This document shows positions 321-17,120 of a DNA stretch of 64,000 nt, piece after piece. The stretch comes from an uncultured Gemmatimonadales bacterium (GTDB taxonomy: Bacteria; Gemmatimonadota; Gemmatimonadetes; Gemmatimonadales; Gemmatimonadaceae): assembly GCA_963701965.1 (NCBI GenBank), contig OY969695.1, positions 1,984,001-2,048,000 of the forward strand. Reading direction: 5' to 3'. The stretch's first letter is position 1. Each line of letters starts with the position of its first letter. The notes under the pieces were generated by a model, which was not told the DNA's origin, ran no database searches, and saw nothing but the letters and a program-made list of their open reading frames with translations. The translations under genes and the position numbers were made by a program.

Positions 321-1886
321 ATGACACATACGAAACTGCGCGCCTCTTTCCTGGCGCTTGCGGCAGCCGCGGTAGCCTTCACGGCTTGCTCGGATACGAA
401 CGTCCCATTCTTCACCGCTCCGACCAGCGTGCCGAGCACGCCGCCGGGCGTGCAGAACGGCATGACCGGCTTGTTCGCCGGCTCGCGGAACGATGTCCAG
501 AGCTTCATTCTGGACATGACCGGGTACGGACGCCAAGGCGCCAACTTCACCAACACCGAGCCGCGGTTCATCACGTATGACCTCGGTGTCGTCCCGATTC
601 CGTCGCAGAGCGGCACGATCTGGACGAACGCGTTCGCCAATATCCTGCAGGCGCATCAGATCCTCGCGACACTGCCGTCGGTGATTCCGGCATATACGCC
701 GGCGCAGATCTCGGCGCTGACGGGCGTCGTGCAGACCATGATCGCCTACAACTACATGCACATGCAGATCGACCACGACTCCGGTGGTGGCACGATCCAG
801 CCGGCCACGACGGCGGCGAACACGCCGCTGCCCGCGGCGCTCTGCAATCAGGACATGTGGAAGTACATCGTGGCGTTGCTCGACTCGGGGAACGCCCAGC
901 TCAACACCGCTGGTGCCACGCCGATTCCCGTGAAGTTGCCGAACGGCTTCTCCGCGGTGAGTCAGGTTGCTGGACCCAGCACTGCCGCTGGCTCGTTCGC
1001 CGCGTTCAACCGGGCGCTTGCCGGTAAGGCGAACTTCGAGTTGGCGTACGCGCTCGCTCGTGGCCCTGGTGGCTCGGCCCCAACGGCGACCACGCCGGGG
1101 AGCCCCAACGTCGCGGCCCTGACCCGCGCGGATAGTGCGCTCACCAACTCGGCGCTCTACGCGCCGGGCGCCCTGGCGGCTGGACCTGCCGGGAGTTGGG
1201 CGGCCGATGCGCATAGCGTATTCTGGGACTTTTCCGCGACGTCGGGCGATCTCGTGAACCCGATGAATGCGCTGGTCGGAACGTATGTAATGCTCAAAGA
1301 ATTTGTCACGCTCGTCGACACGGCTGACCTGCGGTGGAAAGCGAAGTTCGCGCCGTACCCCGCGACGGTTCAGCAGCCGACGTACGCGCCGGTGGCGGTG
1401 CAGGTGTCCTATGCCATGTACGACCAACCGGGCAGCCTTATCCCGATCGTGCGGAACGAGGGCCTCGTCCTATGGCGTGCCCAGATTCAGCTCGGGCTGG
1501 GGAACTTGGCCACGGCCGCGGCCCTGACCGACCAGGTCCGTACCACGGTTGGTGGGGAGCCAGCGGGAACGACCGGGCCCACCACGGTCAGGAACTCGCT
1601 CGGAACCACGGTCACCTTCGCCAAAGTCGACCCGACCAGCTACACGTCGGTGCGCGACTACATCATGAGGGAACAGCAGGTCTCGACGGCGATCGAGGAT
1701 AACGGCGACCGGACGGCGGCGATTCGCGACTACCGGTTGGAGCTCGTCGCCGATACGACGTGGGATTCGTCGAACCCGACGATCAAGAAAGCAGCACCAA
1801 ACGGCGACCAGCACACGACCGTTGACCCCATCCCGTTCGCCGAGCTCTCGGCGCGCGGCGGAGCGTTTAACAAAACCTGCCCGTAA
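321..1886 (+). CDS. SusD/RagB-family surface lipoprotein (cassette 1)
   Basis: Lipobox AVAFTAC; PIVRNEGLVLWRAQ motif like the PIIRNEEL motif of the other SusDs; immediately downstream of susC. Confidence 0.88.
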   Translation: MTHTKLRASFLALAAAAVAFTACSDTNVPFFTAPTSVPSTPPGVQNGMTGLFAGSRNDVQSFILDMTGYGRQGANFTNTEPRFITYDLGVVPIPSQSGTIWTNAFANILQAHQILATLPSVIPAYTPAQISALTGVVQTMIAYNYMHMQIDHDSGGGTIQPATTAANTPLPAALCNQDMWKYIVALLDSGNAQLNTAGATPIPVKLPNGFSAVSQVAGPSTAAGSFAAFNRALAGKANFELAYALARGPGGSAPTATTPGSPNVAALTRADSALTNSALYAPGALAAGPAGSWAADAHSVFWDFSATSGDLVNPMNALVGTYVMLKEFVTLVDTADLRWKAKFAPYPATVQQPTYAPVAVQVSYAMYDQPGSLIPIVRNEGLVLWRAQIQLGLGNLATAAALTDQVRTTVGGEPAGTTGPTTVRNSLGTTVTFAKVDPTSYTSVRDYIMREQQVSTAIEDNGDRTAAIRDYRLELVADTTWDSSNPTIKKAAPNGDQHTTVDPIPFAELSARGGAFNKTCP

Positions 1887-1893
1887 TGCAATT

Positions 1894-2504
1894 GTGGGCA
1901 GGTTGCGGAATGCCCTAACCGTAGTAGGCGTGGCGTGCGCGGCCCTCTGGGCCGCGCCGCCCGCCGAGGCGCATAACGCGGCCCGCATAACGCGGCCTCG
2001 CATAACGCGGCCTCGCATAACGCGGCCTCGCATAACGCGGCCTCGCATAGCGCTGGATCCGAGGGGCGCGCGTGTCGCCCGCCGCTGTACAAGATCGACC
2101 TCCTCCCCCTCGATGAATCGGTCGCCGGCAAGGGTGTCGCCAGCATAGAGCCCGCCGTGACCCCGTTCGGGATGGCCCTGACCCCCGACGGACATGTGAT
2201 CTACGACGTCCACATCTCGCTCTCCAACCTGCCGCCGGCCTCCGAGTTGGGCGGCGCCGAATACGTTGCGTGGGTGACCTCGCCGGATCTCGACCGCGCC
2301 GAGCGGTTGAGCCCCATCGGCCACGATGGCACGGCGCAGGGACGCGTGACGATGAACAAGTTCATCATCTTGGTCACCGCCGAGCACACGCCGGTCGGGG
2401 CCCATTGGACCGGCCGCGTCGCGCTGCGCGGGTTCTCGCCAAGCACCTTTCTGCAGAACTTCTCCAGCGAAGAACTGTTCCTGGGCGGCACACCGCCATG
2501 CTGA
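1894..2504 (+). CDS. Small secreted RskA-C-like protein with N-terminal HNAAS repeats; frameshifted at ~1984
   Basis: GTG at 1894 opens a signal peptide (VGRLRNALTVVGVACAALWAAPPAEA). After a 1-nt shift the frame reads (HNAAS)n-HSAGSEGRACRPPLYKIDLLP... into ORF 2157..2504, which is clearly paralogous to 13548..14030. Stop overlaps the MCO start. Confidence 0.75.
1971..2053 (+). repeat. 15-bp tandem repeat GCATAACGCGGCCTC (one 14-nt unit, four perfect units, one partial unit)
   Basis: Read directly: units at 1971 (14 nt), 1985, 2000, 2015, 2030 and a partial at 2045. Confidence 0.97.
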
Positions 2505-4168
2505 GGCGCCTGTTGGCGATCGCATGGCTGCTGCCGATCGCCGTTCGGGCGCAACAGATGTCCGGCATGGACATGTCCGGTATGGATATGTCGGGCGACA
2601 CCGCGGCCGACCGCGCGCCGCCGATGCCCAAGGGCATGCCGATGATGCCGGGCATGGTCGGGAAAGGTCCGAGCATCGTCCAGTATCTGCCGGCCGACGC
2701 CGCCAGCATCAAAGCCGCCGTCCCGAGCACCGTGGTGACGGTCGCCAACGGCGACACGTTCAACCTAGACGCCAGCCTCGTCCGCCGAACGATCAACGGT
2801 CGCACGTTCGTCATGTACGGGTTCAACGGACAGTACCCGGGTCCGATGATCCGGGTGAAACAGCAGTCCACGATCACCGTGCGGTTCACCAATCACTTGG
2901 ACATGCCGTCGTCCGTGCACTGGCATGGCATTCGGTTGGACAACCAGTACGACGGCGCCGTCGGCGTCACGCAGGACGCGGTCCCACCCGGCGGGACCTT
3001 TGTCTACACGGTCCGGTTTCCGGATGCGGGTTTGTACTGGTACCACCCCCACGTGCGGGAGGACATCGAGCAGAATCTCGGATTGTACGGGAACCTGCTC
3101 GTCGACTCGCCGGATGCCAACTATTACAACCCCGTCAATGCCGAGCGCGCGCTCATCCTGAGCGATCTCTTGATCGACAAGAAGGGGCTTTTCCCGTACG
3201 GGAAGGACACGCCCGACTTCACGATCATGGGGCGCTTCGGAAACGTGATGCTGGTCAACGGCGAGCCACGGTACGCGCTCACGGCACACAAAGGAGACGT
3301 CGTGCGGCTCATGCTGACCGACGTGTCCAGCACGCGGAGCTACAACCTGAGTCTAGGCGGGGCCAAGCTCAAGCTCGTCGCCGCCGACGTCAGCCGCTAC
3401 GAGCACGAACAGATGGTCGACAACGTGACCATCGTGCCCGCGGAGCGCTACGTCGTGGATGCCAAGTTCGACAGCGCGGGCACCTTCGCGTTGACCAATC
3501 GCGTGCAGGCGCTGAACAACTTCTTGGGCGAGTACTCACCCGAGATCGACACGCTGGCGATCGTGACTGTCGATCCGACTCCGTCGGCGACGAGTTACGC
3601 CAAGGAGTTCGCGACGCTCCGGACCAACGCCGACGTCGCGTCCGAGATCGCGCGGTTCAAGGAGGCTTTCACCAAGGCGCCGGACAAGGAACTGGAGCTC
3701 ACGGTCAACATCCAGGGGCTGCCGACGCCGATCGTGGCGCTGATGGCCATCGACACGTCGTACTACTCGCCCGTCGAGTGGAACGACGGCATGCCCGACA
3801 TGAATTGGGTGTCGACGGCCAAGCAAGTGCGGTGGATCATGCGCGACAAGGCCACCGGCAAGGAAGACATGGACATCGACTGGCACTTCAAGAAGGGCGA
3901 TATGGTGAAGATCCGGATCCATAACGACCCCCAGTCGATCCACCCCATGGGCCATCCCCTGCACTTCCACGGTCAGCGCTTTCTGATCATCTCCCGCAAC
4001 GGCATACCCAACCCGTATCTGGCCTGGAAGGATACCGAGCTCATTCCCGTCGGGGAGACCGTCGACATCCTGCTCGACGCGTCGAACCCCGGGCGCTGGA
4101 TGGCGCACTGCCACATTGCCGAGCATCTCGAGGCCGGCATGCACCTCGTGTTCACCGTGGATCCATAG
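2498..4168 (+). CDS. Three-domain multicopper oxidase with Met-rich N-terminus (MCO1)
   Basis: All four Cu-ligand motifs present: HWHG, WYHPH, HPLHFHG, HCHIAEHLEAGM. Signal peptide followed by QMSGMDMSGMDMSG...PPMPKGMPMMPGM. ATG at 2498 overlaps the upstream stop. Confidence 0.95.
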   Translation: MLRRLLAIAWLLPIAVRAQQMSGMDMSGMDMSGDTAADRAPPMPKGMPMMPGMVGKGPSIVQYLPADAASIKAAVPSTVVTVANGDTFNLDASLVRRTINGRTFVMYGFNGQYPGPMIRVKQQSTITVRFTNHLDMPSSVHWHGIRLDNQYDGAVGVTQDAVPPGGTFVYTVRFPDAGLYWYHPHVREDIEQNLGLYGNLLVDSPDANYYNPVNAERALILSDLLIDKKGLFPYGKDTPDFTIMGRFGNVMLVNGEPRYALTAHKGDVVRLMLTDVSSTRSYNLSLGGAKLKLVAADVSRYEHEQMVDNVTIVPAERYVVDAKFDSAGTFALTNRVQALNNFLGEYSPEIDTLAIVTVDPTPSATSYAKEFATLRTNADVASEIARFKEAFTKAPDKELELTVNIQGLPTPIVALMAIDTSYYSPVEWNDGMPDMNWVSTAKQVRWIMRDKATGKEDMDIDWHFKKGDMVKIRIHNDPQSIHPMGHPLHFHGQRFLIISRNGIPNPYLAWKDTELIPVGETVDILLDASNPGRWMAHCHIAEHLEAGMHLVFTVDP

Positions 4169-4184: not shown

Positions 4185-5585
4185 ATGCACAAACGTGTTC
4201 TGATCGCAGCCGCGCTCGTGCCTGTGCTCGCCCTGGCCCAACAAGGTCAGGGGGCGCCCGGCGTGTTGCCCAACGTCAAGAGTGGAGGGAGCACCAATAT
4301 CCATCTCTTGGGTCACGTCCCGTTGGGCGGGTTTTTCCGCGTCATGGACGATGAGATCGAACAGGACCCAGGCCGGCCCTACGCCTACGTATCGCAGGCG
4401 CACGATCGGCCGGGCTTCACGATCATGGACCTGCACGATCTGAATCACATCCACGTCCTGTACAACTGGCGCATCGAGAACGCCGACCTGCACAAAGGAC
4501 TCGGCGGCATGGACGGCAAGTACTTCAAGATCAAGGGCAAGTACTACTACGAGCAGTCTCTGCAGTTCATGCAGGGTGGTCCTGACGCCGATCTCGGCGC
4601 GGTCATCGCCGACGTCACGGGTCTGCCCGACACCAACAAGATCAAGATCGTGGCGCGGCTCCGTGAACCGGACCACCCGGGCGGCTTCCACAATACGTTC
4701 GTCTACAAGCACTCCGACGGGCGCGTCCTCCTGTTCAATACGTTGAACGCGCCGTTCGTCGAGATCTGGGATTTGGAAAAAGTTCTGGCGTCACCCGATA
4801 ACCCGAAGGCCGGTCTGATTGGACAGGTGCCGGTCCCCGGGGGAGAATCGAACGACCGCATGGGCCGCTACGGCTACCATGACTTCTATCTGGGTTACGA
4901 TCCCGCGACCCACCAGGACAAGTTCTACGGCGCGGGACGCGGTGGGTACTACATCTTCGACGTGACCGATCCCACGCAGCCCAAGCTCCTGACGTCGATC
5001 ACGGGTTCGGCGGGTATCGAGTTCGGTCACACGTTCACGCCGACGCCCGACGGCAAGTACGCGGTCGCCGAGACCGAGTACGAGTACGCGCCGCTCCGCA
5101 TCTTCGATCTGCAGCCGGGCTTGAGCGGTCAGGTGCAGGCCATCACGCGGCCAATCGGCGCCTGGACGGCCGACTGGCACGATCTCGCGCACAACCACGA
5201 GATCCGCTGGCCCTACGTGTTCGTCTCCGCGTACGAAGATGGGCTCCAGATCTTCAATATGATCGATCCCAAGAACCCGGTGACGGTCGGCTGGTACTAC
5301 ACCTGCCAGTGCGCCCATGAGACCGGCTTTGGCGGGATCCCGGCCTGGAACGGCACCAGCGTCGAGAACGGCGCGTTCGGCATCGACATCCGGAACTACG
5401 ACGGCGTGATCATGATCAGCGATGCCAACACCGGGGTATGGTTCTTCAAGTTGGATGGCTTCGACGGATGGAACGGCACCGACTGGGGGATGCCGAACAT
5501 CTCGAGCGTGCAGGACTACGATCACGGACCACCGGGCGCCAGCGGGCAGAAGAAAATGGCGCAGGCCACGCCCGGCGTACAGTAA
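4185..5585 (+). CDS. Secreted LVIVD-repeat-like beta-propeller protein (cassette 1)
   Basis: Strong RBS AGGAGGAGG at 4167-4175; signal peptide; blade-like repeats (YYIFDVTDPTQPKLLTSI, YVFVSAYEDGLQIFNMIDPKNPVTVGWY); paralog of 15714..17120. Confidence 0.75.
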   Translation: MHKRVLIAAALVPVLALAQQGQGAPGVLPNVKSGGSTNIHLLGHVPLGGFFRVMDDEIEQDPGRPYAYVSQAHDRPGFTIMDLHDLNHIHVLYNWRIENADLHKGLGGMDGKYFKIKGKYYYEQSLQFMQGGPDADLGAVIADVTGLPDTNKIKIVARLREPDHPGGFHNTFVYKHSDGRVLLFNTLNAPFVEIWDLEKVLASPDNPKAGLIGQVPVPGGESNDRMGRYGYHDFYLGYDPATHQDKFYGAGRGGYYIFDVTDPTQPKLLTSITGSAGIEFGHTFTPTPDGKYAVAETEYEYAPLRIFDLQPGLSGQVQAITRPIGAWTADWHDLAHNHEIRWPYVFVSAYEDGLQIFNMIDPKNPVTVGWYYTCQCAHETGFGGIPAWNGTSVENGAFGIDIRNYDGVIMISDANTGVWFFKLDGFDGWNGTDWGMPNISSVQDYDHGPPGASGQKKMAQATPGVQ

Positions 5586-5670: not shown

Positions 5671-7743
5671 ATGCGCGGGCGACTCGCTCGTACTCTGTTG
5701 CTGGTCATCGCCGTCGCCTGGGCCGCCACGGCGCGTGGTCAGGTGTGCGATGCCGGCGACCGCGCGCTCGCCGCGAGCCGCGACCTTTATTGCCTCACGC
5801 TCGTTCCCGCCGCCGGCTTCGACGGCGCGCGCGGACACGTGGAGCTGGGGCGGATCGCCGGACCGTTCACGGTCGCCGTCACCGCCGACGGCAACCCGCT
5901 CTACGAACCGGTCATCACCATCACCGGCCTCTCGCCCACCGCGCGGTACGAAGCCTGGGTTTCACCGCCGACCATGTACCCCATGGAGAGCCTCGGCGCG
6001 GTGACGAACGGCCGCACCAGCCTGCGGCGCGTGGGTATCGACCCATTCGTCCTGCTGGTCAAAGAGGTGCCGAGCGGCCGTCTCGTGCTCCGCGGCCAGT
6101 CGCCCAGTTCGCGGCTCCAGCCCGCCGATTTTCTGCAGTTCGCGGTCGGCGCCGTACCCGACTCCACTCCGCCGCCGCCCGTTGATACCGCGGCGGTCCG
6201 CTGGACGACCGTGCCAATGTCTCCGGGGATCCCGATGCTGGCCGCCGAGATGGCGCTCCGCCCCTCGGTAGCCGCGACGCTCCCCCACCCGGAGGGCCCA
6301 GTGCCCAACGCCCGCCCGCACACGATCGTGCGCCTCGCCGACGGCGACACGTTGCATTTGCGCGCGGGTCTCGTGCACCGGACGATCCGCGGACGGCCCG
6401 CGGTCATGTACGCGTACAACGGTCAGATCCCCGGCCCGCTGATCGTTGTCCCCCAGGGGGCCGAGATCACGGTCGACTTCGCGAATCATCTCGATCAACC
6501 GACGAGCGTGCACTGGCATGGCGTCCGGCTGGACAACGCATCCGACGGCGTCCCGGGGTTGACCCAGCCGCCGATCGCGCCGGGTAGCCACTTCACGTAT
6601 CGCGTGCGGTTTCCCGACGCCGGGACCTACTGGTATCACCCGCACGTGCGCGAGGACACGCAGCAAGATCTCGGACTCTACGGCAACATCGTCGTCGAAC
6701 CGCGCGGCGGCGCGCTACTACCGCGCGAGCAGGTACTCATGCTCGATGACATCTCGGTGACGGCCGACGGCCTCGTGCCTTACGGACGCGACGCCGCGAC
6801 GCACGCGCTCATGGGTCGCTTTGGCAATGTCCTGCTCGTGAACGGGGAACCGGCCTATCATCTCACCGCTCGGCGCGGCGAGGTCGTGCAGTTCCGCCTC
6901 ACGAACGCCTCGAACACGCGCGTCTTCAATCTGTCATTTCCCGGCGCCCGCATGAAGGTCGTGGGCAGCGACGCGGGAATGTTCGAGCGCCCGGAATGGG
7001 TCGAAAGCGTCGTCATCGCGCCCGCCGAGCGGTACATCGTGCAAGTGCGGTTCGACACCCCCGGTCGTGTGCCGTTCGTCAACCGCGTGCGCTCGCTCGA
7101 TCATCTCTTTGGCCGCTTTCTCACGCTGGCCGACACCCTGGGCATCGTCCACGTGCGGTCACCGTCCGTGCCTCGTGACGCGGGCTTCGACCGGCTTGTC
7201 GCCGACCGTCGGATGACCGCCGACATCGAGCGCCTTCGGCCGTATTTCCAGCGGCTACCCGATCACACGCTGCTCCTGACGCTCGAGACCCACGATCTCC
7301 CCTTCGTCACCCGCCAGCTCATGCTGCTCGACTCTGTGTACTTCACGCCTGTGGAGTGGACGGAGAGCATGCCCAACATGAACTGGGCGGCGACCAGCGA
7401 TCAGGTACGCTGGGTGTTGCGCGACCCGGCAACCGGCCGGGAGAACATGGACATCGACTGGACCTTTCGCCGGGACACGGTCATCACGCTGCGGCTGGTC
7501 AACGACCGGAACACGCTCCATGGCATGCAGCACCCGATCCACATCCACGGCCAGCGCTTTCTCGTCCTCGCCGTGAATGGCGTGCCCAATACGAACCTGG
7601 TGTGGAAAGACACCGTCCTGGTGCCGGCGGGAGCGGCCGTGGACATCCTGCTCGACTTGTCCAACCCCGGCCAATGGATGATCCACTGCCACATCGCCGA
7701 GCACCTGACCGCCCAGATGATGGCCGCCTTCACGGTGGAGTGA
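5671..7743 (+). CDS. Multicopper oxidase with fused N-terminal RskA-C-like domain (MCO2)
   Basis: Motifs HWHG, WYHPH, HPIHIHG, HCHIAEHLTAQM. Signal peptide. The N-terminal ~130 aa align by eye with the small proteins at 1894..2504 and 13548..14030. Confidence 0.93.
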   Translation: MRGRLARTLLLVIAVAWAATARGQVCDAGDRALAASRDLYCLTLVPAAGFDGARGHVELGRIAGPFTVAVTADGNPLYEPVITITGLSPTARYEAWVSPPTMYPMESLGAVTNGRTSLRRVGIDPFVLLVKEVPSGRLVLRGQSPSSRLQPADFLQFAVGAVPDSTPPPPVDTAAVRWTTVPMSPGIPMLAAEMALRPSVAATLPHPEGPVPNARPHTIVRLADGDTLHLRAGLVHRTIRGRPAVMYAYNGQIPGPLIVVPQGAEITVDFANHLDQPTSVHWHGVRLDNASDGVPGLTQPPIAPGSHFTYRVRFPDAGTYWYHPHVREDTQQDLGLYGNIVVEPRGGALLPREQVLMLDDISVTADGLVPYGRDAATHALMGRFGNVLLVNGEPAYHLTARRGEVVQFRLTNASNTRVFNLSFPGARMKVVGSDAGMFERPEWVESVVIAPAERYIVQVRFDTPGRVPFVNRVRSLDHLFGRFLTLADTLGIVHVRSPSVPRDAGFDRLVADRRMTADIERLRPYFQRLPDHTLLLTLETHDLPFVTRQLMLLDSVYFTPVEWTESMPNMNWAATSDQVRWVLRDPATGRENMDIDWTFRRDTVITLRLVNDRNTLHGMQHPIHIHGQRFLVLAVNGVPNTNLVWKDTVLVPAGAAVDILLDLSNPGQWMIHCHIAEHLTAQMMAAFTVE

Positions 7744-7785: not shown

Positions 7786-8958
7786 ATGGCAGATCAGCAC
7801 GGCGACGCGAATATCACGCGCCGCGGTTTCGCATCGTTGACCGGTCTCGCGGCGCTGGGCGCGATGTCGCGGGGCGGTCTCGAGCGGCCGATGACGCTCG
7901 CCGAGCGGGTCATGGCCGCGCCAGCGGAGCCCATTCCGGCGTTTACGTACAACATTGAGAATCAGACGGGGAAGGTGACCGAGGGCGGGTCGGGCAAGGA
8001 GGCGACCGTCAAAGAGTTCGCCATCTCCGAGGGGCTGGCCGGGGTGTCCATGCGCCTCAAGCCGGGCGGTTTGCGCGAGCTGCACTGGCACGCCCTGGCG
8101 GCGGAATGGGCATTCATGATCAAGGGCCGTTGCCAGATCACCGTGTTCGATCCCGACGGGCGCATGGAGCGGGTGGATTTCGCGCCGGGTGACATCTGGT
8201 ATTTCCCCCGCGGGTATGGCCACTCGCTGCAGGGCCTGGGTCCCGAGGAGACGCACTTCATTTTGATCTTCGACAACGGCCATTTCTCCGAGTACGGCAC
8301 CTTCAGCGTGACGGATTGGATGTCGTTGACTGCTCCCAAAGTGGTGGCCCAGAACTTCGGGATGCCGGCGTCCACGTTCGCCAACATCCCGAAGAAGGAG
8401 ATGTATATCGGCCAGGGGCGCGTGCCGGCGCCCGTACCGGCCGATCCCCCGGCGGGATCGGACCGAGAGGGGGCGTTGTCGCACCGCTATCGGTTGATGG
8501 CGCAGGTGCCCCATGAGTTCCCCGGTGGCACGCTGCGGGTGGCCTCGTCGGTCGAGTTTCCAATGTCGACGACCATGACCGGCGCGTACATGACCATCGC
8601 GCCCGGCGGGCTTCGGGCCATGCATTGGCATCCCAACGCCGACGAGTGGCAGTACTACCTGCAGGGGCGGGCGCGGGTGACGCTCTTTGGATCGAGCGGG
8701 CGGTCCCGCACCGAGGAGGTGGGACCGGGCGAGGTGGTCTACATCCCGCGCGGGTTCGGGCACCACATCGAGAGCATCGGGGCCGAGGAGGCGCACGTGG
8801 TGATCGGCTTCAACTCCGGCATCTACCAGGAGTCGAGCTTCTCCCAGTGGCTGCGCTCGGTTCCGCCCGAGCTGGTGACCGACAACTTCGGGATTCCCGA
8901 ACAGGTGGTGAGTGCATTCCCGAAGTCCACGCTCCCGATTGTGGGCGCCGGGCAGTAG
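7786..8958 (+). CDS. oxdC: Bicupin oxalate decarboxylase-family protein with Tat signal
   Basis: Two cupin Mn-binding motifs (RELHWHALAAEW, RAMHWHPNADEWQY); lid-like FSEYGTF; twin-arginine TRRGFA; RBS GAGGAG upstream. Confidence 0.85.
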   Translation: MADQHGDANITRRGFASLTGLAALGAMSRGGLERPMTLAERVMAAPAEPIPAFTYNIENQTGKVTEGGSGKEATVKEFAISEGLAGVSMRLKPGGLRELHWHALAAEWAFMIKGRCQITVFDPDGRMERVDFAPGDIWYFPRGYGHSLQGLGPEETHFILIFDNGHFSEYGTFSVTDWMSLTAPKVVAQNFGMPASTFANIPKKEMYIGQGRVPAPVPADPPAGSDREGALSHRYRLMAQVPHEFPGGTLRVASSVEFPMSTTMTGAYMTIAPGGLRAMHWHPNADEWQYYLQGRARVTLFGSSGRSRTEEVGPGEVVYIPRGFGHHIESIGAEEAHVVIGFNSGIYQESSFSQWLRSVPPELVTDNFGIPEQVVSAFPKSTLPIVGAGQ

Positions 8959-9219: not shown

Positions 9220-12168
9220 ATGCGATTCTCTCGTGCGCTCGTGCTGTTCGGCGCTTTCGCCGTCCTTCCCGCCGTAGCCCGCGCCCAAGGGCGCGTCATC
9301 GGCGGTCGTGTGACGGACGGCGAGAGCGGGCAACCGCTCTCTGACGTGCAGGTGGTCATCAAGGGCACCCAGATCGGCGCCCATACCCACGACGACGGAC
9401 AGTACGTTCTCCCAACGCAGACCGGCGCCGTGACGTTGACGTTCCGGCGGATCGGATACAAAGCGGCCGAGCTCGCCGTCGCCGCCACGGAGACGAGCGC
9501 CAACGTCGCGCTCACCCGCGACGTGCTCAAGCTCGAAGAAACGATCGTCACCGGTGAGGCGACGAACGTCACCCGGCGGAACGCCGCCAACGCCGTAGCG
9601 ACCGTGTCGGCGGATCAGCTGTCGCAAGTGCAGGCCCAGACTCTCGATCAACAGCTCGCGGGCAAGGTCGCCGGCGCGGACATTCAGCAGAACTCCGGCG
9701 CGCCCGGCGGCGGCCTTCAGGTCAGGCTCCGCGGCGCCTCCACCATCATCGGCCAGTTCGATCCGCTCTACGTGATCGACGGGATCATCGTCAGCAACAA
9801 CGCGATTCCGCCGGGCACGAACGCGATTACGCAGGCGGCGAGCGCCAGCGGCATCTCGTCGAACGAGGACAACCCGACGAGCCGCATCGCCGATATCGAC
9901 CCCAATGACATCGAGAACATCGAAATCCTGAAGGGGCCGTCCGCCGCCGCGATCTACGGATCCAAAGCCGCCAACGGCGTCGTGCTCATCACGACGAAAC
10001 GGGGCCGGGCGGGCAAGACCCGCATCAACATCGCGCAACGGTTCGGATTCAGCGCACTGTCGCACGAACTGGGTTCCCGGACGTTCGACTCCACGGGCGC
10101 CATTGCCCAGTTCGGGTCGGCGGTCGCGCCACTCTTCCACTCTGGTGTCACCTACAACCACGACGAGGAATTGGCCGGTCACAAGCCGCTGTCCTACCAG
10201 ACGACGGCCAACATCGGCGGCGGCACGGACGCCACCAAATACTACGCCTCCGGCATCAACGAGTACGACGGCGGCATCATCGACAACACGTACTTCCGGA
10301 AGCAGTCCGTATCGGGCTCGCTCGACCAATCGATCGGCAGCAAGGTCCAAGTCGGGTTCAACACCTCGTTGATGCACACCGCGGCGGGGCGCGGGCTCAC
10401 GAACAACGACAACGTGACGGCATCCTTCTACACCGCGATGGCCGGCATCCCGAGTTTCTTGAATCTGCAGGCCAATAACAACGGGCAGTTCCCCAACAAT
10501 CCCCTGGGGCCCAGCAATCCGTTGCAGACCGCCGCCCTGCTGCACAATGACGAGGGGGTCTACCACGGCTTCGGCGCGTTCCGCGGCACGTGGCATGTGC
10601 TGGAACAGCGCAGCAACTCCCTGGACCTGACCACCACGGCCGGCGTCGACTACTTCCAGCAGCAGAATTCGGTCTACGCGCCACCGTCGCTGCAGTTCGA
10701 GCAATCCTCGCCCCCGCCGGGCGTGAGCGTGCTCACGAACTCGAACAACCTGAATACCAACGTCAATCTCAACCTGATCGACCGGTTCACGCCTGGCGGA
10801 TTCTCGGCGACGACATCGTTCGGGGTCGAGCAAGAGACGCGGACGCTGAACGTCGCCGCCACCGCGGCCCGCGGGTTGAGCGGGACGCTCACCAGCGTGT
10901 CGAGTGGCACGTCGGTGGCCGTGCAACAAGCCCGCGAAGACGTCGTCGACCAGGGCGTGTTCTTGCAGGAGGAGTTCTTGACCTTGGCGGATCGGCTCCT
11001 GCTGACGGCGGGTGCGCGCGCCGATCGCAGCAGCAACAACGCCAATACGAGTCACTTGTATGTCTATCCCAAGGCCGCGGCGTCCTATCGGCTGCCGACT
11101 CAGACGTCGTTCTTGGACGAGATCAAGTTCCGCGCGGCCGTCGGCGCCTCGGGCAACGAGCCCCAATACGGCCAGAAGTTTGGCGAGCTGGTGACGGCCA
11201 ATCTCGCGGGGCTGCCCACGCAACAGGTCAAGGGTTCGATCGCCGCGCCCGACCTCCGGCCTGAGCGCTCGTTCGAGATCGAAGGAGGTTTCGACGCGAC
11301 GCTGTTCCACGGCCGGGCGACGCTGGGCGTGACGGGCTATCAAAAGCGCACCACGGATCTCCTGCTCTCGCGCGCTCTGGCTCCCTCGTTCGGAGACACC
11401 ACCGAGTACTTCAACGCCGGCGTCATGCGGACCCGCGGCATCGAGGTCGAGGCGTCCGTGATCGCCGCCCAGGGACGGAATCTCAACTGGACCATCACCA
11501 GCACGTTCTCCAAGCAGGCAGCACTCATCGTCGAACTGCCCGTGCCGTCGTTCAGCCCTGGTGGCTTCCCGACGGAGTTCGGCACGTTCATGATCGAACA
11601 GGGGGCGTCGCCGACGCAGATTGTCGGGAACGTGACGCTAGCGAATGGCACGCTCACCACGGGGAAGATCGGCGACGCCAACCCGGACTACCGCGTGTCC
11701 CTGGCCAACAACGTCACGTTCCGGCAACTCCACCTGTCATTCCTGTTCGATGCCTCGAAGGGTCAGGACGTCGATAACCTGACCGAGCTGCTGTACGACT
11801 TCGGCGGCAACACGAAGGACTACGCCGACCTGATCACGGTAGGCGGCAAGCAGGTCATGAAGGGGGTGTATCGGCTCACCCAATGGCCCACGAATACCTC
11901 GGTGTACGTGCAGGATGCCTCGTATATCAAGCTGCGCGAGATCAACATCTCCTACGACCTGCCGACGTACATGCTGTCGCCGTTCGGCCGGGGACTGCAT
12001 TCCGCCTCGCTCAGCTTCTCCGTGCGGAATCTCTTCACGCTGACGCACTATCAGGGCATGGACCCCGAGGTCTCGAACTTCGGCAACCAAGCCATCTCGC
12101 GAAACGTGGACGTCGCGCCATTCCCTCCGAGCCGCACCTTCTGGTTCGGCATCAACCTGGGGCTCTGA
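9220..12168 (+). CDS. SusC/RagA-family TonB-dependent outer-membrane transporter (cassette 2)
   Basis: Signal peptide, carboxypeptidase-regulatory-like N-domain, plug motifs PLYVIDG and [34 protein letters not shown]-terminal DPEV...PPSRTFWFGINLGL. Confidence 0.96.
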   Translation: MRFSRALVLFGAFAVLPAVARAQGRVIGGRVTDGESGQPLSDVQVVIKGTQIGAHTHDDGQYVLPTQTGAVTLTFRRIGYKAAELAVAATETSANVALTRDVLKLEETIVTGEATNVTRRNAANAVATVSADQLSQVQAQTLDQQLAGKVAGADIQQNSGAPGGGLQVRLRGASTIIGQFDPLYVIDGIIVSNNAIPPGTNAITQAASASGISSNEDNPTSRIADIDPNDIENIEILKGPSAAAIYGSKAANGVVLITTKRGRAGKTRINIAQRFGFSALSHELGSRTFDSTGAIAQFGSAVAPLFHSGVTYNHDEELAGHKPLSYQTTANIGGGTDATKYYASGINEYDGGIIDNTYFRKQSVSGSLDQSIGSKVQVGFNTSLMHTAAGRGLTNNDNVTASFYTAMAGIPSFLNLQANNNGQFPNNPLGPSNPLQTAALLHNDEGVYHGFGAFRGTWHVLEQRSNSLDLTTTAGVDYFQQQNSVYAPPSLQFEQSSPPPGVSVLTNSNNLNTNVNLNLIDRFTPGGFSATTSFGVEQETRTLNVAATAARGLSGTLTSVSSGTSVAVQQAREDVVDQGVFLQEEFLTLADRLLLTAGARADRSSNNANTSHLYVYPKAAASYRLPTQTSFLDEIKFRAAVGASGNEPQYGQKFGELVTANLAGLPTQQVKGSIAAPDLRPERSFEIEGGFDATLFHGRATLGVTGYQKRTTDLLLSRALAPSFGDTTEYFNAGVMRTRGIEVEASVIAAQGRNLNWTITSTFSKQAALIVELPVPSFSPGGFPTEFGTFMIEQGASPTQIVGNVTLANGTLTTGKIGDANPDYRVSLANNVTFRQLHLSFLFDASKGQDVDNLTELLYDFGGNTKDYADLITVGGKQVMKGVYRLTQWPTNTSVYVQDASYIKLREINISYDLPTYMLSPFGRGLHSASLSFSVRNLFTLTHYQGMDPEVSNFGNQAISRNVDVAPFPPSRTFWFGINLGL

Positions 12169-12171
12169 ACC

Positions 12172-13548
12172 ATGACGATGCGTCGAATTGCGCTCTGTGG
12201 CATGGTGGTCGCGCTCGCGGCGTGCCGTGATACGACCGTGCCCGATCTCAACAGCGGCAGTGTCAGCGGATTCGAGACGAATCCGACTGCAGATGGCGCC
12301 AACGCCCTCGCCGTCGGTCTCATTCGCGGCGCACGGGACAACAATGCGCTCATCGTCTCGACGATCGGCCCGTTTGGTCGCGAGGGCTACGAGCTGAATC
12401 TGGCTCGCGGCGACCTGCCCGACTACATCATCGGCCCCCTCACACCGGGCACGTTCTACGTTGCCCAGCTCTGGATCGGGGAATACGCCGACCTGCGCTC
12501 GGCGGGCCTTCTCCTCGACAAGGTCGGCAGCATCAGCAACTTGTCGCCGGCGCAGCAGGAGGGGCTGAGGGGCTTTGCCCAGACGATGCAGGCCTACGAC
12601 CTCACGCTCCTGGCGGAGACGCGCGACACGCTAGGCCTGCCGATCGACGTGTACGTCGATCCGACGGGTACACCGGCGCCGGTCGCCACCAAGACGGTCG
12701 TGTACCAGCACATTCTCAATCTGCTCGATTCCGCGTCCACGCACCTGAATGCCGCGGGGAGCGGGTTCTCGATCTCGACGTTAGACCTTGACAAGGCGGG
12801 CTTTGCGGACTTCGACACGCCGAGCACGTTCCTCACGTTCAACCGCGCGCTCCGCGCGCGGGTTGATATTCTCACGAATCAGTATGCCGACGCACTGACC
12901 GACCTCTCCGCATCGTTTCTCACGACTGGTACCGGCTCCCTCAACATCGGTCCCGTGTTCGCGTTCTCGGCGAATTCCGGGGACGAACCGAACCCGCTGT
13001 TTTCACAGTTCCTGTATGCCGAGCCGGATCTCATCACCAACGCGCAGCGACAGGCCGGCGACACGGTGCGGGATGCGCGAATTCTGGCCAAGCTCATCCC
13101 CGCCGTGCAGTCCGCCACGTTGGACGGGGTGACGTCGGACCTCGCGTTCGCGGCCTACCAGAGCCTGGGCGCGCCGCTACCGATCATTCGGAATGAAGAG
13201 CTGATCCTCTTGCGCGCCGAGGCGAACATTGGCCTGGGCAACCTCGGTCCGGCGGTGACCGACCTCAATCTGATTCGCACGCAGTCGGGCGGTCTCGCTC
13301 CGCTCTCCGGAGCGGCGGCGGCCAGCGCCGATTCGCTGCTCGAAGACCTGCTCTACGAGAAACGATACTCGCTGCTGTGGGAGGGCGGACACAACTGGGT
13401 GGACATGCGCCACTATAGCAAGCTGGCCGAGATTCCCAAGGGGCAACTCGCGACCTCGAAGATCTTCACCGTGGTACCGTACCCGATCGAGGAATGCAAC
13501 GCGCGGGTACCGAAGCCCAAGGGCTGCACCAACGACGCAGGGTTGTAA
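12172..13548 (+). CDS. SusD/RagB-family surface lipoprotein (cassette 2)
   Basis: Lipobox VVALAAC; PIIRNEELILLRAEA and LLYEKRYSLLWEGGHNWVDMR motifs. Confidence 0.93.
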   Translation: MTMRRIALCGMVVALAACRDTTVPDLNSGSVSGFETNPTADGANALAVGLIRGARDNNALIVSTIGPFGREGYELNLARGDLPDYIIGPLTPGTFYVAQLWIGEYADLRSAGLLLDKVGSISNLSPAQQEGLRGFAQTMQAYDLTLLAETRDTLGLPIDVYVDPTGTPAPVATKTVVYQHILNLLDSASTHLNAAGSGFSISTLDLDKAGFADFDTPSTFLTFNRALRARVDILTNQYADALTDLSASFLTTGTGSLNIGPVFAFSANSGDEPNPLFSQFLYAEPDLITNAQRQAGDTVRDARILAKLIPAVQSATLDGVTSDLAFAAYQSLGAPLPIIRNEELILLRAEANIGLGNLGPAVTDLNLIRTQSGGLAPLSGAAAASADSLLEDLLYEKRYSLLWEGGHNWVDMRHYSKLAEIPKGQLATSKIFTVVPYPIEECNARVPKPKGCTNDAGL

Positions 13549-14030
13549 TGCTGGCGAAGGGCCGGATCCTGCTGACGCTGGGCGCGCTGTGGCTGGCGCG
13601 CCCAGCGATGTATGCGATTCCACTCATTGCGACGCCCACGGGGACGGGGGCGTCGGGAGTGGCGACGTTGTCGCGTCCCGAGTCGCCGTTCAGTGTCCCG
13701 GTGACGCGGGATGGGCACGTGATCTACAACGTGGCCATCACGGTCCAAGGACTGCCGCCGGCCAGCGCGTTCGACGGCGCGACGACCTACGTCGCCTGGG
13801 CGACCGTTCCCGACCTGTCGCTCGCCCGTAGCCTCGGCCCCATCACGGCCGACGGCAGGGCCAAGGGCCAAGTGGCCTGGAACAAGTTCATCGTGCTGGT
13901 CACGGCCGAAAAGACCGCGGGCGCGCATTGGACCGGACCCATCCTGCTCAAGGGCGTGAGCCCGAGCACGTGGATGCAACGGTTCCAGGCCCACGTCATC
14001 GGGAACGGCGGCAATCCCGACCCGCCATGA
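13548..14030 (+). CDS. Small secreted RskA-C-like protein (cassette 2)
   Basis: TAATG coupling to susD and ATGA coupling to the MCO. Shares DGHVIY, LPP..YVAW, NKFI(V/I)LVTAE, GAHWTG..L.G.SPST with the cassette-1 paralog. Confidence 0.85.
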   Translation: MLAKGRILLTLGALWLARPAMYAIPLIATPTGTGASGVATLSRPESPFSVPVTRDGHVIYNVAITVQGLPPASAFDGATTYVAWATVPDLSLARSLGPITADGRAKGQVAWNKFIVLVTAEKTAGAHWTGPILLKGVSPSTWMQRFQAHVIGNGGNPDPP

Positions 14031-15703
14031 GACGGGTCGTGATGCTCATGACGCTGCTCGCGGCCCGCGTGGGAGCGCAGGACACGTCCATGGCGGGCAT
14101 GCACATGAACATGGACATGCCGGGCATGGGTGGGCACCGGATGCCACCGATGCCCGCGGGCATGCCCATGATGTCCGGCATGGAGGGCGCGGCGCCGCAA
14201 GTAAAAGCATTTCTGCCCGGCGCCGGCGTCGATCCGGCGACCGTACCGGTCGCCCACGCCAGCAAGATCATAGAAGTCGCGAACGGCGACACGCTGGATC
14301 TCGACGCCGGCCTCGTCCGCCGCACGATCAACGGCGCGACCTATACAATGTACGCGTTCAACGGCCAATCTCCCGGACCGTTGATCCGCGTCAAGCAGAA
14401 CGCCACGATCGTCGTCCGGTTCACCAATCACATCGACCTGCCGTCCTCGATCCACTGGCACGGCGTGCGACTGGCCAATGCGTTCGACGGCAGCGTGGGC
14501 ATGACGCAGGCGGCCGTCGCTCCCGGCGGACGCTTCATCTACCAAGTGCACTTCCCCGACGCGGGCCTCTACTGGTACCACTCCCACGTCCGCGAAGATA
14601 TCGAGCAAGGCCTTGGGCTCTTTGGCAACATTAGAGTCGATTCGCCGGACCCGCAGTACTACAGCGCCGTGAACACCGAGTCCACGCTCATCCTGAACGA
14701 CATCCTCGTGGATCCGCACGGGCTCATTCCCTATGGTGGCGAGGCGTCGGACTTCTCCATCATGGGCCGCTTCGGGAATCTGCTGCTGGTGAACGGCGAG
14801 CCCCGCTATCATCTGGCCGTCCACAAAGGCGACGTCGTGCGGTTCTTCCTCACCAACGCCTCCAACGCCCGGAGCTACAACATCGATTTCGGCGGCGCGA
14901 CCCTCAAGGTCGTCGGCACCGACGTCAGCCGCTACGAGCGGGAGATCCCCGTGACCAGCGTCGTCATCGCCCCTGCGCAACGGTTCATCGTCGAGGCGCG
15001 GTTCGACACGGCGGGCCGCTTCGTGCTGGCCAACCGCGTCCAAGCCGTCTCCAATTTCACGGGCGAATACGCGACCGAAGTCGACACGCTGGGGACGATC
15101 GAAGTGTCCCCGCAACCGACGGCGGTGGACCACGGGAAACAGTTCGCCACCCTGCGCGCGTACCCGGAGGTCTCCCACGACATCGATCGCTTCCGTGCCC
15201 AGTTCACCAAACCCGTGGATCACGAGCTCACGCTCACCGTCAACATTCAAGGCCTGCCGCACGATCTCGTGGCGTTCATGGCGATCGACACCATGTACTT
15301 CAACCCCGTGGAGTGGAACGACGGGATGCCCGACATGAATTGGGTGTCCACGGGCAAGGAAGTCCACTGGATCCTGCGCGACGCCGCGACGGGCAAGGAG
15401 AACCTGGACATCGACTGGCACATGCACGCGGGCGACGTCGTGAAGATCCGGCTCCACAACGACGAACGCTCGATGCACCCAATGGCGCACCCGATCCACT
15501 TTCACGGCCAGCGTTTTCTCGTGCTGTCCCGGGATGGCGTGGCGAATACCGACTTGGCCTGGCAGGACACGGAGCTCGTCCCGGTCGGCTCGACCGAGGA
15601 CATCCTGCTGGATGCGTCCAACCCGGGCGTCTGGATGGCCCACTGTCACATCGCGGAACATCTCGACGCCGGTATGCAAATGCGGTTTACCGTCGACCCT
15701 TAG
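14027..15703 (+). CDS. Three-domain multicopper oxidase with Met-rich N-terminus (MCO3)
   Basis: HWHG, WYHSH, HPIHFHG, HCHIAEHLDAGM; N-terminal SMAGMHMNMDMPGMGGHRMPPMPAGMPMMSGM; close paralog of MCO1. Confidence 0.95.
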   Translation: MRRVVMLMTLLAARVGAQDTSMAGMHMNMDMPGMGGHRMPPMPAGMPMMSGMEGAAPQVKAFLPGAGVDPATVPVAHASKIIEVANGDTLDLDAGLVRRTINGATYTMYAFNGQSPGPLIRVKQNATIVVRFTNHIDLPSSIHWHGVRLANAFDGSVGMTQAAVAPGGRFIYQVHFPDAGLYWYHSHVREDIEQGLGLFGNIRVDSPDPQYYSAVNTESTLILNDILVDPHGLIPYGGEASDFSIMGRFGNLLLVNGEPRYHLAVHKGDVVRFFLTNASNARSYNIDFGGATLKVVGTDVSRYEREIPVTSVVIAPAQRFIVEARFDTAGRFVLANRVQAVSNFTGEYATEVDTLGTIEVSPQPTAVDHGKQFATLRAYPEVSHDIDRFRAQFTKPVDHELTLTVNIQGLPHDLVAFMAIDTMYFNPVEWNDGMPDMNWVSTGKEVHWILRDAATGKENLDIDWHMHAGDVVKIRLHNDERSMHPMAHPIHFHGQRFLVLSRDGVANTDLAWQDTELVPVGSTEDILLDASNPGVWMAHCHIAEHLDAGMQMRFTVDP

Positions 15704-15713
15704 GAGATCTCTG

Positions 15714-17120
15714 ATGCTGCGAACGACCGTCTTTCTGCTGGCCGTGAGTGCCGCTGCCGCTGCGGCGCAGGACCCGGCACCGTCTCAACCCCCGAAGCTC
15801 GACAAAGTCGGCGGCAGCCCCAACGTGCACCTGCTGTCGCACGTCCCCCTCGGCGGCTACTTCCGCGTGGCCGACGCGGACCTGGAGCAGGAGATGTCGC
15901 GCCCCTACGCCTACGTCGGACAGATCCGCGACCGCCCCGGCTTCACGATTCTCGATATCAAAGATCCATCGAACGCCAAAGTCCTGTACAAGTGGAAGAT
16001 CGAAAATGCCGATCTCCACCAGGGGGACGGCGGCCTCCGCGCCAAGTACTTCAAGCTCAAAGGACGCTACTACGTCGCCGTCTGCTATCAGTTCCTCCAG
16101 GGCTCACCGGACACCGACCTCGGCGCCATCATCTACGACGTGACGGGTCTGCCGGACACGAGCAAGATCAAGGTCGTCGCCCGGATCACCGCGCCCTCCA
16201 CGCCCGGTGGCTTCCACAATCTCTTCATGTACAAGCACTCCGATGGCCGGGTGCTGATGTTCACCACGACCACGACGAGCCAAGCCAACATCTACGACAT
16301 GGAGAAGACAATCGCCGGCGACAAGGACTTCGGATTCATCGGCACGGTCCCAATTCCCCAAGGATCCGCCCACAAAGAAGTCCTGCCGGGCTTCGCGCAG
16401 GGACAGATCGCGATCTCGGGCTACCACGATTTCTACGTGGGCTTCGATCCGGCCACGCGGCAGGACAAGTTCTATGGCGCTGGCGCGGGCGGCTACTACG
16501 TCTACGATGTCACCCACACCGATCAGATCAAGCTGGTCACCTCGGTGGTCGGCTCGGCTGGGGTAGGCTGGGGCCACACCTTCACGCCGACGCCCGATGG
16601 CGCGTTCGCTATCACCGAGACCGAGTATCAGTGGGCGCCACTGCGTATCTACGACCTGCGTCCCGGGTTGGAGGGGAAAGTCCAGGCCGTCACGCAACCC
16701 GTGTCGGTGTGGAACGCCGACTGGAACGACCTCGCCCACAACCACGAAGTCCGCTGGCCGTACGTGTTCGTCTCCGCCTACGAGGATGGTCTCCAGATCT
16801 TCAACATGCAGGATCCGGCGCACCCGAAGACCATCGGCTGGTACTACACATGCGAATGCCAGCACGAGACCGGGTTCGGCGGCCTGCCGCAGTGGACCGG
16901 CAAGAGCATCTATAATGGCGCCTTCGGCATCATGGTGCGGAATGCCGATGGCCTCATCATGATCACCGACTCCAACACCGGCGCCTGGTTCTTCAAGCTC
17001 GACGGGTTCAGTGGCTGGAATGGCGACGACTGGGGCATGCCCAACATCTCCAGCGCGCAGGACTGGGATCACGGCCCGCCGGGATCGGCGGCCCATAAAG
17101 TCGCCACCGCTACCAAGTAA
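15714..17120 (+). CDS. Secreted LVIVD-repeat-like beta-propeller protein (cassette 2)
   Basis: RBS AGGAG; signal peptide; long near-identical blocks with 4185..5585 (HNHEVRWPYVFVSAYEDGLQIFNM, DWGMPNISS). Confidence 0.75.
   Translation: MLRTTVFLLAVSAAAAAAQDPAPSQPPKLDKVGGSPNVHLLSHVPLGGYFRVADADLEQEMSRPYAYVGQIRDRPGFTILDIKDPSNAKVLYKWKIENADLHQGDGGLRAKYFKLKGRYYVAVCYQFLQGSPDTDLGAIIYDVTGLPDTSKIKVVARITAPSTPGGFHNLFMYKHSDGRVLMFTTTTTSQANIYDMEKTIAGDKDFGFIGTVPIPQGSAHKEVLPGFAQGQIAISGYHDFYVGFDPATRQDKFYGAGAGGYYVYDVTHTDQIKLVTSVVGSAGVGWGHTFTPTPDGAFAITETEYQWAPLRIYDLRPGLEGKVQAVTQPVSVWNADWNDLAHNHEVRWPYVFVSAYEDGLQIFNMQDPAHPKTIGWYYTCECQHETGFGGLPQWTGKSIYNGAFGIMVRNADGLIMITDSNTGAWFFKLDGFSGWNGDDWGMPNISSAQDWDHGPPGSAAHKVATATK

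Follow-up and report, generated by a model that had tools for sequence, protein, structure and literature searches.

The first 21,000 nucleotides of the stretch analysed here raise the question of why three neighbouring multicopper oxidases (MCO1, MCO2 and MCO3) are accompanied by one and the same small domain in two different arrangements, and what this domain does for the enzymes. The stretch (the window) comprises 64,000 nt of contig OY969695.1 from an uncultured Gemmatimonadales bacterium (assembly GCA_963701965.1, positions 1,984,001 to 2,048,000), and all coordinates below are positions in this window. MCO1 and MCO3 lack the domain, and each lies directly behind a small gene, encoding small protein 1 or small protein 2, with which it overlaps in an ATGA. 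The N-terminus of MCO2 is about 130 residues longer than those of MCO1 and MCO3 and, by eye, consists of a signal-like start followed by the domain and then by the Cu-oxidase domains.

Each oxidase gene is paired with one domain

The front domain of MCO2 (about 125 residues) is 31% identical to small protein 1 over 137 columns (E 2e-16) and 30% identical to small protein 2 over 138 columns (E 1e-15), and the two small proteins are 49% identical to each other. The local alignment scores of the MCO2 domain, 150 and 151, compare with maxima of 59 and 65 in 1000 shuffles each (z >20), and the similarity among the three segments is significant. An earlier note on this DNA had recognised the small cassette protein as the N-terminal domain of an oxidase and had all three oxidases paired with it, two through a coupled upstream gene and one through a fusion. 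Both observations are confirmed, except that the note placed the fusion in the third oxidase; by position, it is the middle oxidase that is fused.

We searched 60 related genomes together with the host genome and found the domain in 25 genomes. In the host genome, the domain occurs six times and the subfamily has six oxidases, all of them paired, four in split form (one heavily frameshifted) and two fused. Across all genomes, 43 of the 44 domain places examined run into an oxidase or directly precede one (22 fused and 21 split), and the lone exception is a remote domain match (E 7.6e-6) at the front of an OmpA protein. The oxidase-side search of the same genomes gave 48 subfamily loci at an identity of at least 43%; five loci cut by contig ends and one in an unpublished genome were left out, and the coordinates from the two sides were matched by hand. 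All 42 testable loci have the domain fused or directly upstream, and none of 13 outgroup oxidase loci has it within the 3.5-4.5 kb examined.

In a second test, loci were picked with a pattern drawn solely from oxidase domain 3 and independent of the partner domain. The best 80 of its 596 matches comprise 74 split loci, one fused locus, four loci cut by contig ends and one locus without an adjacent domain; 75 of these 76 testable loci therefore carry the domain fused or directly upstream, a count of kindred loci under a ranking that favours split types and not of independent events. In the remaining locus, the domain lies 3.4 kb upstream, past an inserted permease-like gene. The stop codon of the small gene and the start codon of the oxidase overlap (-4, -1 or -7 bases) in 60 of 75 split loci. 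Among the long domain-bearing proteins listed, 119 of 120 carry Cu-oxidase domains, and the four copper motifs are kept in 115 of 115 full-length fused relatives, which shows that the fusion is not an assembly artefact. The results show that the pairing is a family trait, with one domain per oxidase gene across the Gemmatimonadota loci, and about half of the family has the domain fused covalently. The closest named oxidase relatives among the matches listed are Gemmatimonadota records.

Both exceptions can be described further. The OmpA exception (L071:7699-9159, minus strand; G045:C52) has the domain match at the front of a coiled-coil and OmpA protein, lacks the SPF hairpin described below, and is possibly a bridge to RskA_C-like domains. 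At the other locus (L126 / L197; G106:C3), the gene between the small gene and the oxidase is ABC-permease-like and about 900 codons long.

Fused and split forms are separated by a single change in the oxidase tree (support 100) and in the domain tree (support 98), and judging from both trees one fusion or fission event separates them. In the free tree rooted with the 13 outgroup oxidases (3 of 40 rows omitted as short), the split forms are nested inside the fused forms, but a constrained fused clade is not rejected (approximately unbiased test, p-AU 0.51), and we therefore claim no direction for the event.

Fold and distant kinship of the domain

The model of fused MCO2 reaches a predicted local distance difference test score (pLDDT) of 86 and a predicted template modelling score of 0.88, with pLDDT values of 74-95 over the barrel of the domain, which is modelled as all-beta with about eight strands and short C-terminal helices. 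The core of the model best matches Thermus laccase and CueO (Z 39.2; Foldseek E 2.6e-40). The only listed structural match to the domain is the barrel of a loop-less apo variant of the superoxide dismutase (SOD) SOD1 (6flh_A; Z 9.2, root-mean-square deviation 2.5, 94 aligned), which was obtained by searching the whole-protein model, not a single-domain model. Foldseek with the fused model returned only oxidases from the PDB, and its other search returned noise beyond two viral oxidases. The domain profile shows no significant resemblance to any solved structure among PDB sequences; a profile match to the surface-layer propeller 1l0q was rejected because it rests on a short P.G..V..DG repeat. 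A single-sequence fold of small protein 2 (pLDDT 45) was uninformative in the structure search (Z at most 5.2). The family, which comprises 486 clusters at 50% identity with E at most 1e-10, is unannotated.

The earlier note had seen in the domain the pattern of the C-terminal domain of the anti-sigma factor RskA. The pattern is indeed visible: the L-P..Y.(A/L)W..TxE residues of RskA_C stand in register with the domain over 68 columns. It does not reach significance, as none of the three window domains matches the RskA_C Pfam model (cut-off 29.4 bits) and hhalign of the domain against a 17-sequence RskA alignment gives probabilities of 2.5% and 7.6%, the latter alignment scoring 20.8 compared to 17.8 for the best of 30 shuffles. 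Weak RskA_C matches occur in 6 of 62 relatives at E at most 0.1 (best 4.5e-5), and another relative scores 26.3 bits. In the language-model Atlas, the three nearest named clusters score 0.84-0.88 (below 0.9) and have RskA_C on 14-35% of their members; the cluster at 0.88 shares 190 features and has RskA_C on 35%. In the low-probability global alignment, the SPF-DG hairpin of the domain stands opposite a gap of RskA. A distant kinship with RskA_C is plausible from these comparisons. The YoqH family (PF26349) has a precomputed match in 13 of 120 listed relatives, none of them window proteins, and appears on 20% of one Atlas cluster; Pfam scans of the window proteins and 62 relatives gave no PF26349 match. 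The window proteins fall below significance or cut-off for RskA_C (PF10099), YoqH and the SOD-like and CHRD barrels alike, and the domain differs from RskA and SOD in lacking the anti-sigma parts of the one and the metal ligands of the other.

The predicted complex and the role of the domain

The complex prediction that the earlier note had proposed was run on small protein 2 and MCO3 and scored 0.92 in three runs, compared to 0.01 for the best of three controls. At least 76% of the contacts agree between runs, and the pLDDT of the partner is at least 81. When the tool was tested, 116 of 157 solved and 2 of 215 mismatched pairs attained its mark; this calibration is only rough for the custom alignments of the present prediction, in which fused proteins were among the oxidase sequences. 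The predicted interface of small protein 2 consists of residues 45-58, 112-113 and 139-146, including F48, D55, G56 and S140, and adjoins G136-x-S138-P139, where conservation across the two forms is highest. The invariant P47/F48 and D55/G56 make the contacts of lowest error, and F48, D55 and G56 are 97-100% conserved in split and fused forms. On MCO3 (numbering counted from window position 14120), the predicted interface comprises the domain-2 strands 254-289, the hairpin 306-319, the insert 392-399 and residues 449, 456 and 471-493, with 449 and 456 next to the type-1 copper ligand His457. By alignment range, residue 304 of the query corresponds to residue 284 of Thermus laccase, in which the hairpin Ala292-Gln307 is described as covering the substrate entrance (PMC11766367). 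N254, S280, V307, G315, P396, V397 and W399 are 92-100% conserved within the subfamily, and the outgroup lacks them.

No His, Cys or Met column of the domain is conserved in both split and fused forms, which makes copper loading or direct copper delivery by the domain unlikely. A C-terminal His is present in 90% of split proteins, but Leu takes this position in 78% of fused proteins and Glu in small protein 1. The His/Asp/Cys metal ligands of SOD are not conserved in the domain, and a conserved CxxxC, the motif of CutF, is absent too. Cysteines come in pairs: of 119 fused proteins, 108 have an N-terminal pair, and among 26 small proteins with a C-terminal Cys, 20 carry another one ahead of the first strand, an arrangement that would suit disulfides. 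The Met/His content is 15% in the split oxidase arm, 11% in fused linkers and 7% in the core. PcoA and CueO are described as substrates of twin-arginine translocation (Tat) (PMC7558416), and a Tat-like pattern occurs in only 2 of 119 fused proteins and 0 of 66 split oxidases. Both chains are probably exported by Sec and would therefore fold in the periplasm.

From the pairing and the model, the domain is probably a permanent subunit that braces the lid on the type-1 side, stabilises the oxidase and shapes its substrate range. The SPF-x5-DG hairpin and the GxSPS helix of the one domain that comes with each oxidase, fused or coupled, are predicted to pack on the edge strand and the hairpin of oxidase domain 2 and to touch the domain-3 insert and the loop beside His457. 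This packing would brace the lid over the type-1 copper site, and the subunit would therefore confer stability on the enzyme and restrict the range of its substrates, like the small subunits of fungal laccases. Copper handling, if any, would be the task of the Met/His-rich arm or linker of the oxidase and not of the domain. The earlier note had called the domain a dedicated oxidase partner, which might present the substrate, load copper or serve in docking; docking and dedication are supported by the co-occurrence, the matching trees and the complex model, and copper loading is not, for want of a conserved ligand.

Several points weigh against this reading. A high score is the expected outcome for a pair that also exists as a fusion, because the fused geometry is available for the model to learn, and the score of 0.92 shows conserved packing and not binding in the cell. 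Sequence searches of the PDB gave no comparable complex. We infer the closeness of the domain to the type-1 site from sequence mapping rather than from coordinates, and much of the modelled interface (254-289 and 471-493) may lie beside the pocket and not over it. Conservation is no higher in the interface columns than elsewhere (0.65 compared to 0.68), and these columns are only slightly, and not significantly, more subfamily-specific (11 of 48 compared to 61 of 424, p 0.14). The distances in the domain and oxidase trees correlate (r 0.83, 20 split pairs), but linkage alone would give the same result. In addition, the gene for small protein 1 is frameshifted in this assembly.

Two other roles are conceivable, and we consider both unlikely. 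The domain could be a transient maturation factor, in the manner of CutF or of a pro-domain, that binds the oxidase only during folding or copper uptake and then leaves or becomes dispensable. Folding in the periplasm after Sec export agrees with this, and one-to-one pairing is equally compatible with it, but in about half of the family the domain stays covalently attached, the joint model of fused MCO2 is confident, the modelled partner in the complex is the folded oxidase, and neither CxxxC nor any other ligand is conserved. To much the same degree unlikely is an adaptor or substrate-binding module, anchored by the hairpin, whose free face would bind the propeller protein encoded nearby, an amidohydrolase, SusD or a polymeric substrate. 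Propeller genes accompany nearly all split loci and amidohydrolase genes nearly all fused loci (counts below), one relative (P0336, 1002 residues) is a triple fusion with a peptidase S51 domain before the partner domain and the oxidase, and a SOD-like barrel serves as a binding scaffold in chordin (PMC13382577). The conserved columns, however, belong to the core or to the oxidase contact, with no second conserved patch identified (surface exposure was not computed), and the fused MCO2 of the window is followed by an oxalate-decarboxylase-family cupin instead of an amidohydrolase.

A copper chaperone, that is, a barrel like SOD or its copper chaperone CCS that binds copper and passes it to the oxidase, is very improbable: the SOD1-barrel match and the C-terminal His of the split proteins speak for it, but that His is replaced in fused proteins and in small protein 1, the match is to a loop-less apo variant, no His, Cys or Met is common to both forms, and the cysteines come as terminal pairs that suit disulfides. 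We give least credit, and very little of it, to a sensor domain of RskA type that regulates an extracytoplasmic function (ECF) sigma factor. RskA anti-sigma factors have a cytoplasmic sigma-binding N-terminus and a membrane helix and adjoin an ECF sigma gene. By eye, the domain proteins have neither part and begin with about 20 signal-like residues followed by the domain, with no retained membrane anchor evident. No ECF gene lies directly beside the domain genes, whose neighbours are SusD or propeller genes upstream and the oxidase downstream, and the host genome has a separate RskA gene above the cut-off elsewhere. The weak RskA_C similarity by several methods, and one other locus of the genome with ECF and FecR genes ahead of SusC, point the other way, but an oxidase is adjacent in all domain places save one, and the absence of anti-sigma anatomy supports the earlier note, which had assigned the domain no anti-sigma role.

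The lid-bracing subunit that we favour has partial counterparts in known systems. The small subunits of the fungal heterodimeric laccase-like NLAC enzymes (Pleurotus POXA3, PeNL) are described as raising stability and activity (PMC10443355, PMC10741624). In both cases a three-domain oxidase is associated one-to-one with a small protein, with modelled contacts on substrate-binding loops and a subfamily-specific insert, but the fungal subunit is described as a four-helix bundle, whereas the bacterial partner is a predicted beta-barrel encoded in the same operon or fused. MnxG of Bacillus sp. PL-12, which forms the Mnx complex with MnxE3F3, was called in a 2017 paper the only characterised oxidase that needs accessory proteins for overexpression (PMC5622069); it is likewise a bacterial multicopper oxidase with small accessory proteins encoded beside it, but MnxG is much larger (1217 residues, 9bxa), MnxE/F are described as a copper-binding hexamer, and the family studied here has one domain per gene, fused in about half, with no MnxE/F-type match among PDB sequences. 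Thermus thermophilus laccase and Escherichia coli CueO, the best structural matches of the core, are described with built-in lids over the substrate entrance (PMC11766367). At 25-30% identity, they are described without an additional barrel; the oxidases studied here have their Met-rich stretch at the N-terminus, and a separate domain is predicted to brace their lid. MCO1-3 fall below the NCBIfam cut-offs for CueO (122-170 compared to 525 bits) and CopA (126-166 compared to 479 bits). CutF of Rhodobacter capsulatus (cutFOG) is described as a small Sec-exported protein whose gene directly precedes that of a multicopper oxidase and without which this oxidase is not active (PMC7558416), but has CxxxC and a C-terminal PPR motif, whereas the domain lacks a conserved CxxxC and also occurs fused. 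Chordin resembles the domain in the described reuse of a SOD barrel without metal ligands. The domain belongs to none of the NLAC small subunits, MnxE/F or CutF.

In a literature search of incomplete coverage, we found no description of the domain or of its pairing with oxidases, and no paper on LVIVD proteins with a multicopper oxidase. To our knowledge, bacterial three-domain laccase-like enzymes are treated as monomers, and accessory subunits are known for Mnx and one fungal clade. If the proposed role is correct, the domain would be a subunit of another fold that evolved separately and is present in hundreds of Gemmatimonadota contigs (at least 596 stretches matched), and this would give a role to an unannotated domain family. 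Split-type 'laccases' mined from soil metagenomes may then express poorly or change their substrate range without the upstream gene, and a fused and a split pair in one genome are direct natural material for a test.

Gene layout, neighbours and possible substrate

The genes described lie in window 1-21000, all on the plus strand, in the order SusC end, SusD, small protein 1, MCO1, propeller 1, MCO2, bicupin, SusC, SusD, small protein 2, MCO3, propeller 2, esterase-domain protein and S9 peptidase. MCO1-3 each have three Cu-oxidase domains above the Pfam cut-off, with the ten His, one Cys and axial Met ligands present; in MCO2 these are H281, H283, H323, H325, H621, H624, H626, H672, C673, H674, H678 and M683.

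Table. Position of the oxidases, their partner domains and adjacent features in the window
Feature	Position	Strand	Remark
SusD-like lipoprotein 1	321..1886	+	SusC partner ends at 318
Small protein 1 gene	1894..2504	+	Frameshifted in assembly; domain 2085-2501; stop overlaps MCO1 start (ATGA)
15-bp tandem repeat, HNAAS peptide units	1970..2053	+	First unit one base short
MCO1, split-type oxidase	2498..4168	+	Met-rich N-terminal arm
Propeller 1, LVIVD-like / choice-of-anchor-B-like	4185..5585	+	Conserved companion of split form
MCO2 open reading frame, fused-type oxidase	5671..7743	+	690 residues; ATG 5671
MCO2 signal peptide	5671..5739	+	Sec-like, without twin-arginine consensus; by eye
Partner domain fused to MCO2	5785..6159	+	Predicted eight-stranded beta-barrel after conserved Cys pair
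GPF-x6-DG hairpin of MCO2 domain	5854..5898	+	Equivalent, by alignment, to predicted oxidase-binding hairpin; interface from paralogue model
MCO2 linker	6160..6312	+	Met/His-enriched in relatives; low confidence, pLDDT <50 at model residues 128-151
MCO2 three-domain multicopper oxidase core	6313..7743	+	All copper ligands present
Oxalate-decarboxylase-family bicupin	7786..8958	+	Directly after MCO2
Cassette 2 SusC and SusD	9220..13548	+	SusC 9220-12168, SusD 12172-13548
Small protein 2	13548..14030	+	160 residues, intact; start overlaps SusD stop; stop overlaps MCO3 start
Small protein 2 residues 45-58 (ESPFSVPVTRDGHV)	13680..13721	+	Core of predicted interface
MCO3, split-type oxidase	14027..15703	+	Met-rich N-terminal arm
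MCO3 domain-2 hairpin	15035..15076	+	Contacted in model; position of Thermus laccase lid hairpin (from alignment ranges)
MCO3 domain-3 insert MYFNPVEW	15293..15316	+	Contacted in model; largely gapped in 13 outgroup oxidases
LVIVD-like propeller 2	15714..17120	+

A propeller gene accompanies 21 of 21 split loci in the genomes searched and 69 of the 74 from the best 80 of 596 pattern matches. Across 34 sequences, the propeller has the invariant residues H83, H149, H212, H262, H316 and H318, an invariant C354-x-C356-x-H358 (CxCxH) and invariant E39, E278 and E319. It has only weak LVIVD and choice-of-anchor-B matches and no sequence match in the PDB. From these residues, the secreted propeller is a candidate metalloenzyme tied to the split oxidases. 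SusC and SusD genes lie within 5 kb in a minority of split loci (10 and 9 of 74). An amidohydrolase gene follows in 18 of the 20 fused loci with downstream sequence, in the place held by the bicupin behind MCO2 in the window, and four fused loci have an amino-acid-permease-like gene upstream.

These SusC/SusD, peptidase, amino-acid permease and amidohydrolase neighbours make us lean, at slightly better than an even chance, to an imported organic nitrogen compound as the oxidase substrate. Free Cu(I), reached through the Met-rich arm, is a serious though somewhat less probable candidate, and this choice of substrate is the weakest step of the proposed mechanism. Taken as a whole, the system might be an obligate two-part enzyme in which a barrel of RskA/SOD type has become the subunit that braces the lid and determines the substrate range at the type-1 copper, and which, together with the His/Cys-rich metallo-propeller (split) or the amidohydrolase (fused), oxidises cargo imported by SusC/SusD, by a periplasmic catabolic route that would be new for Gemmatimonadota; we offer this wider picture only tentatively, and regard it as rather doubtful.

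Another cassette of the host genome (L001:8177-19552; G000:C1 about 1730000-1741500) has genes for an ECF sigma factor, FecR, SusC, SusD, a propeller, a small protein, an oxidase and a second propeller, named by eye and by BLAST among themselves, and is apparently under FecIR-type control.

In the gene for small protein 1, the signal-peptide part (GTG at 1894) is in a different frame from the domain part, and the 15-bp tandem repeat lies between the two frames, with a first unit (1971-1984) of only 14 bp. An intact homologue of small protein 1 matches the upstream frame at 54%. No contig from three public runs bridges the frameshift site. Given the many breaks in another genomic copy (L003), an assembly error is plausible; the HNAAS repeat could reflect such an assembly slip or be a repeat-linked on/off switch. 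That copy is the sixth cassette (L003:6980-14925; G000:C1 about 469000-477000), which has genes for a DUF305-like protein, two propellers, a small protein and an oxidase, with many frameshifts. The second propeller family, which lies beside DUF305 in this cassette, has about eight copies in the genome, several of them split into two frames.

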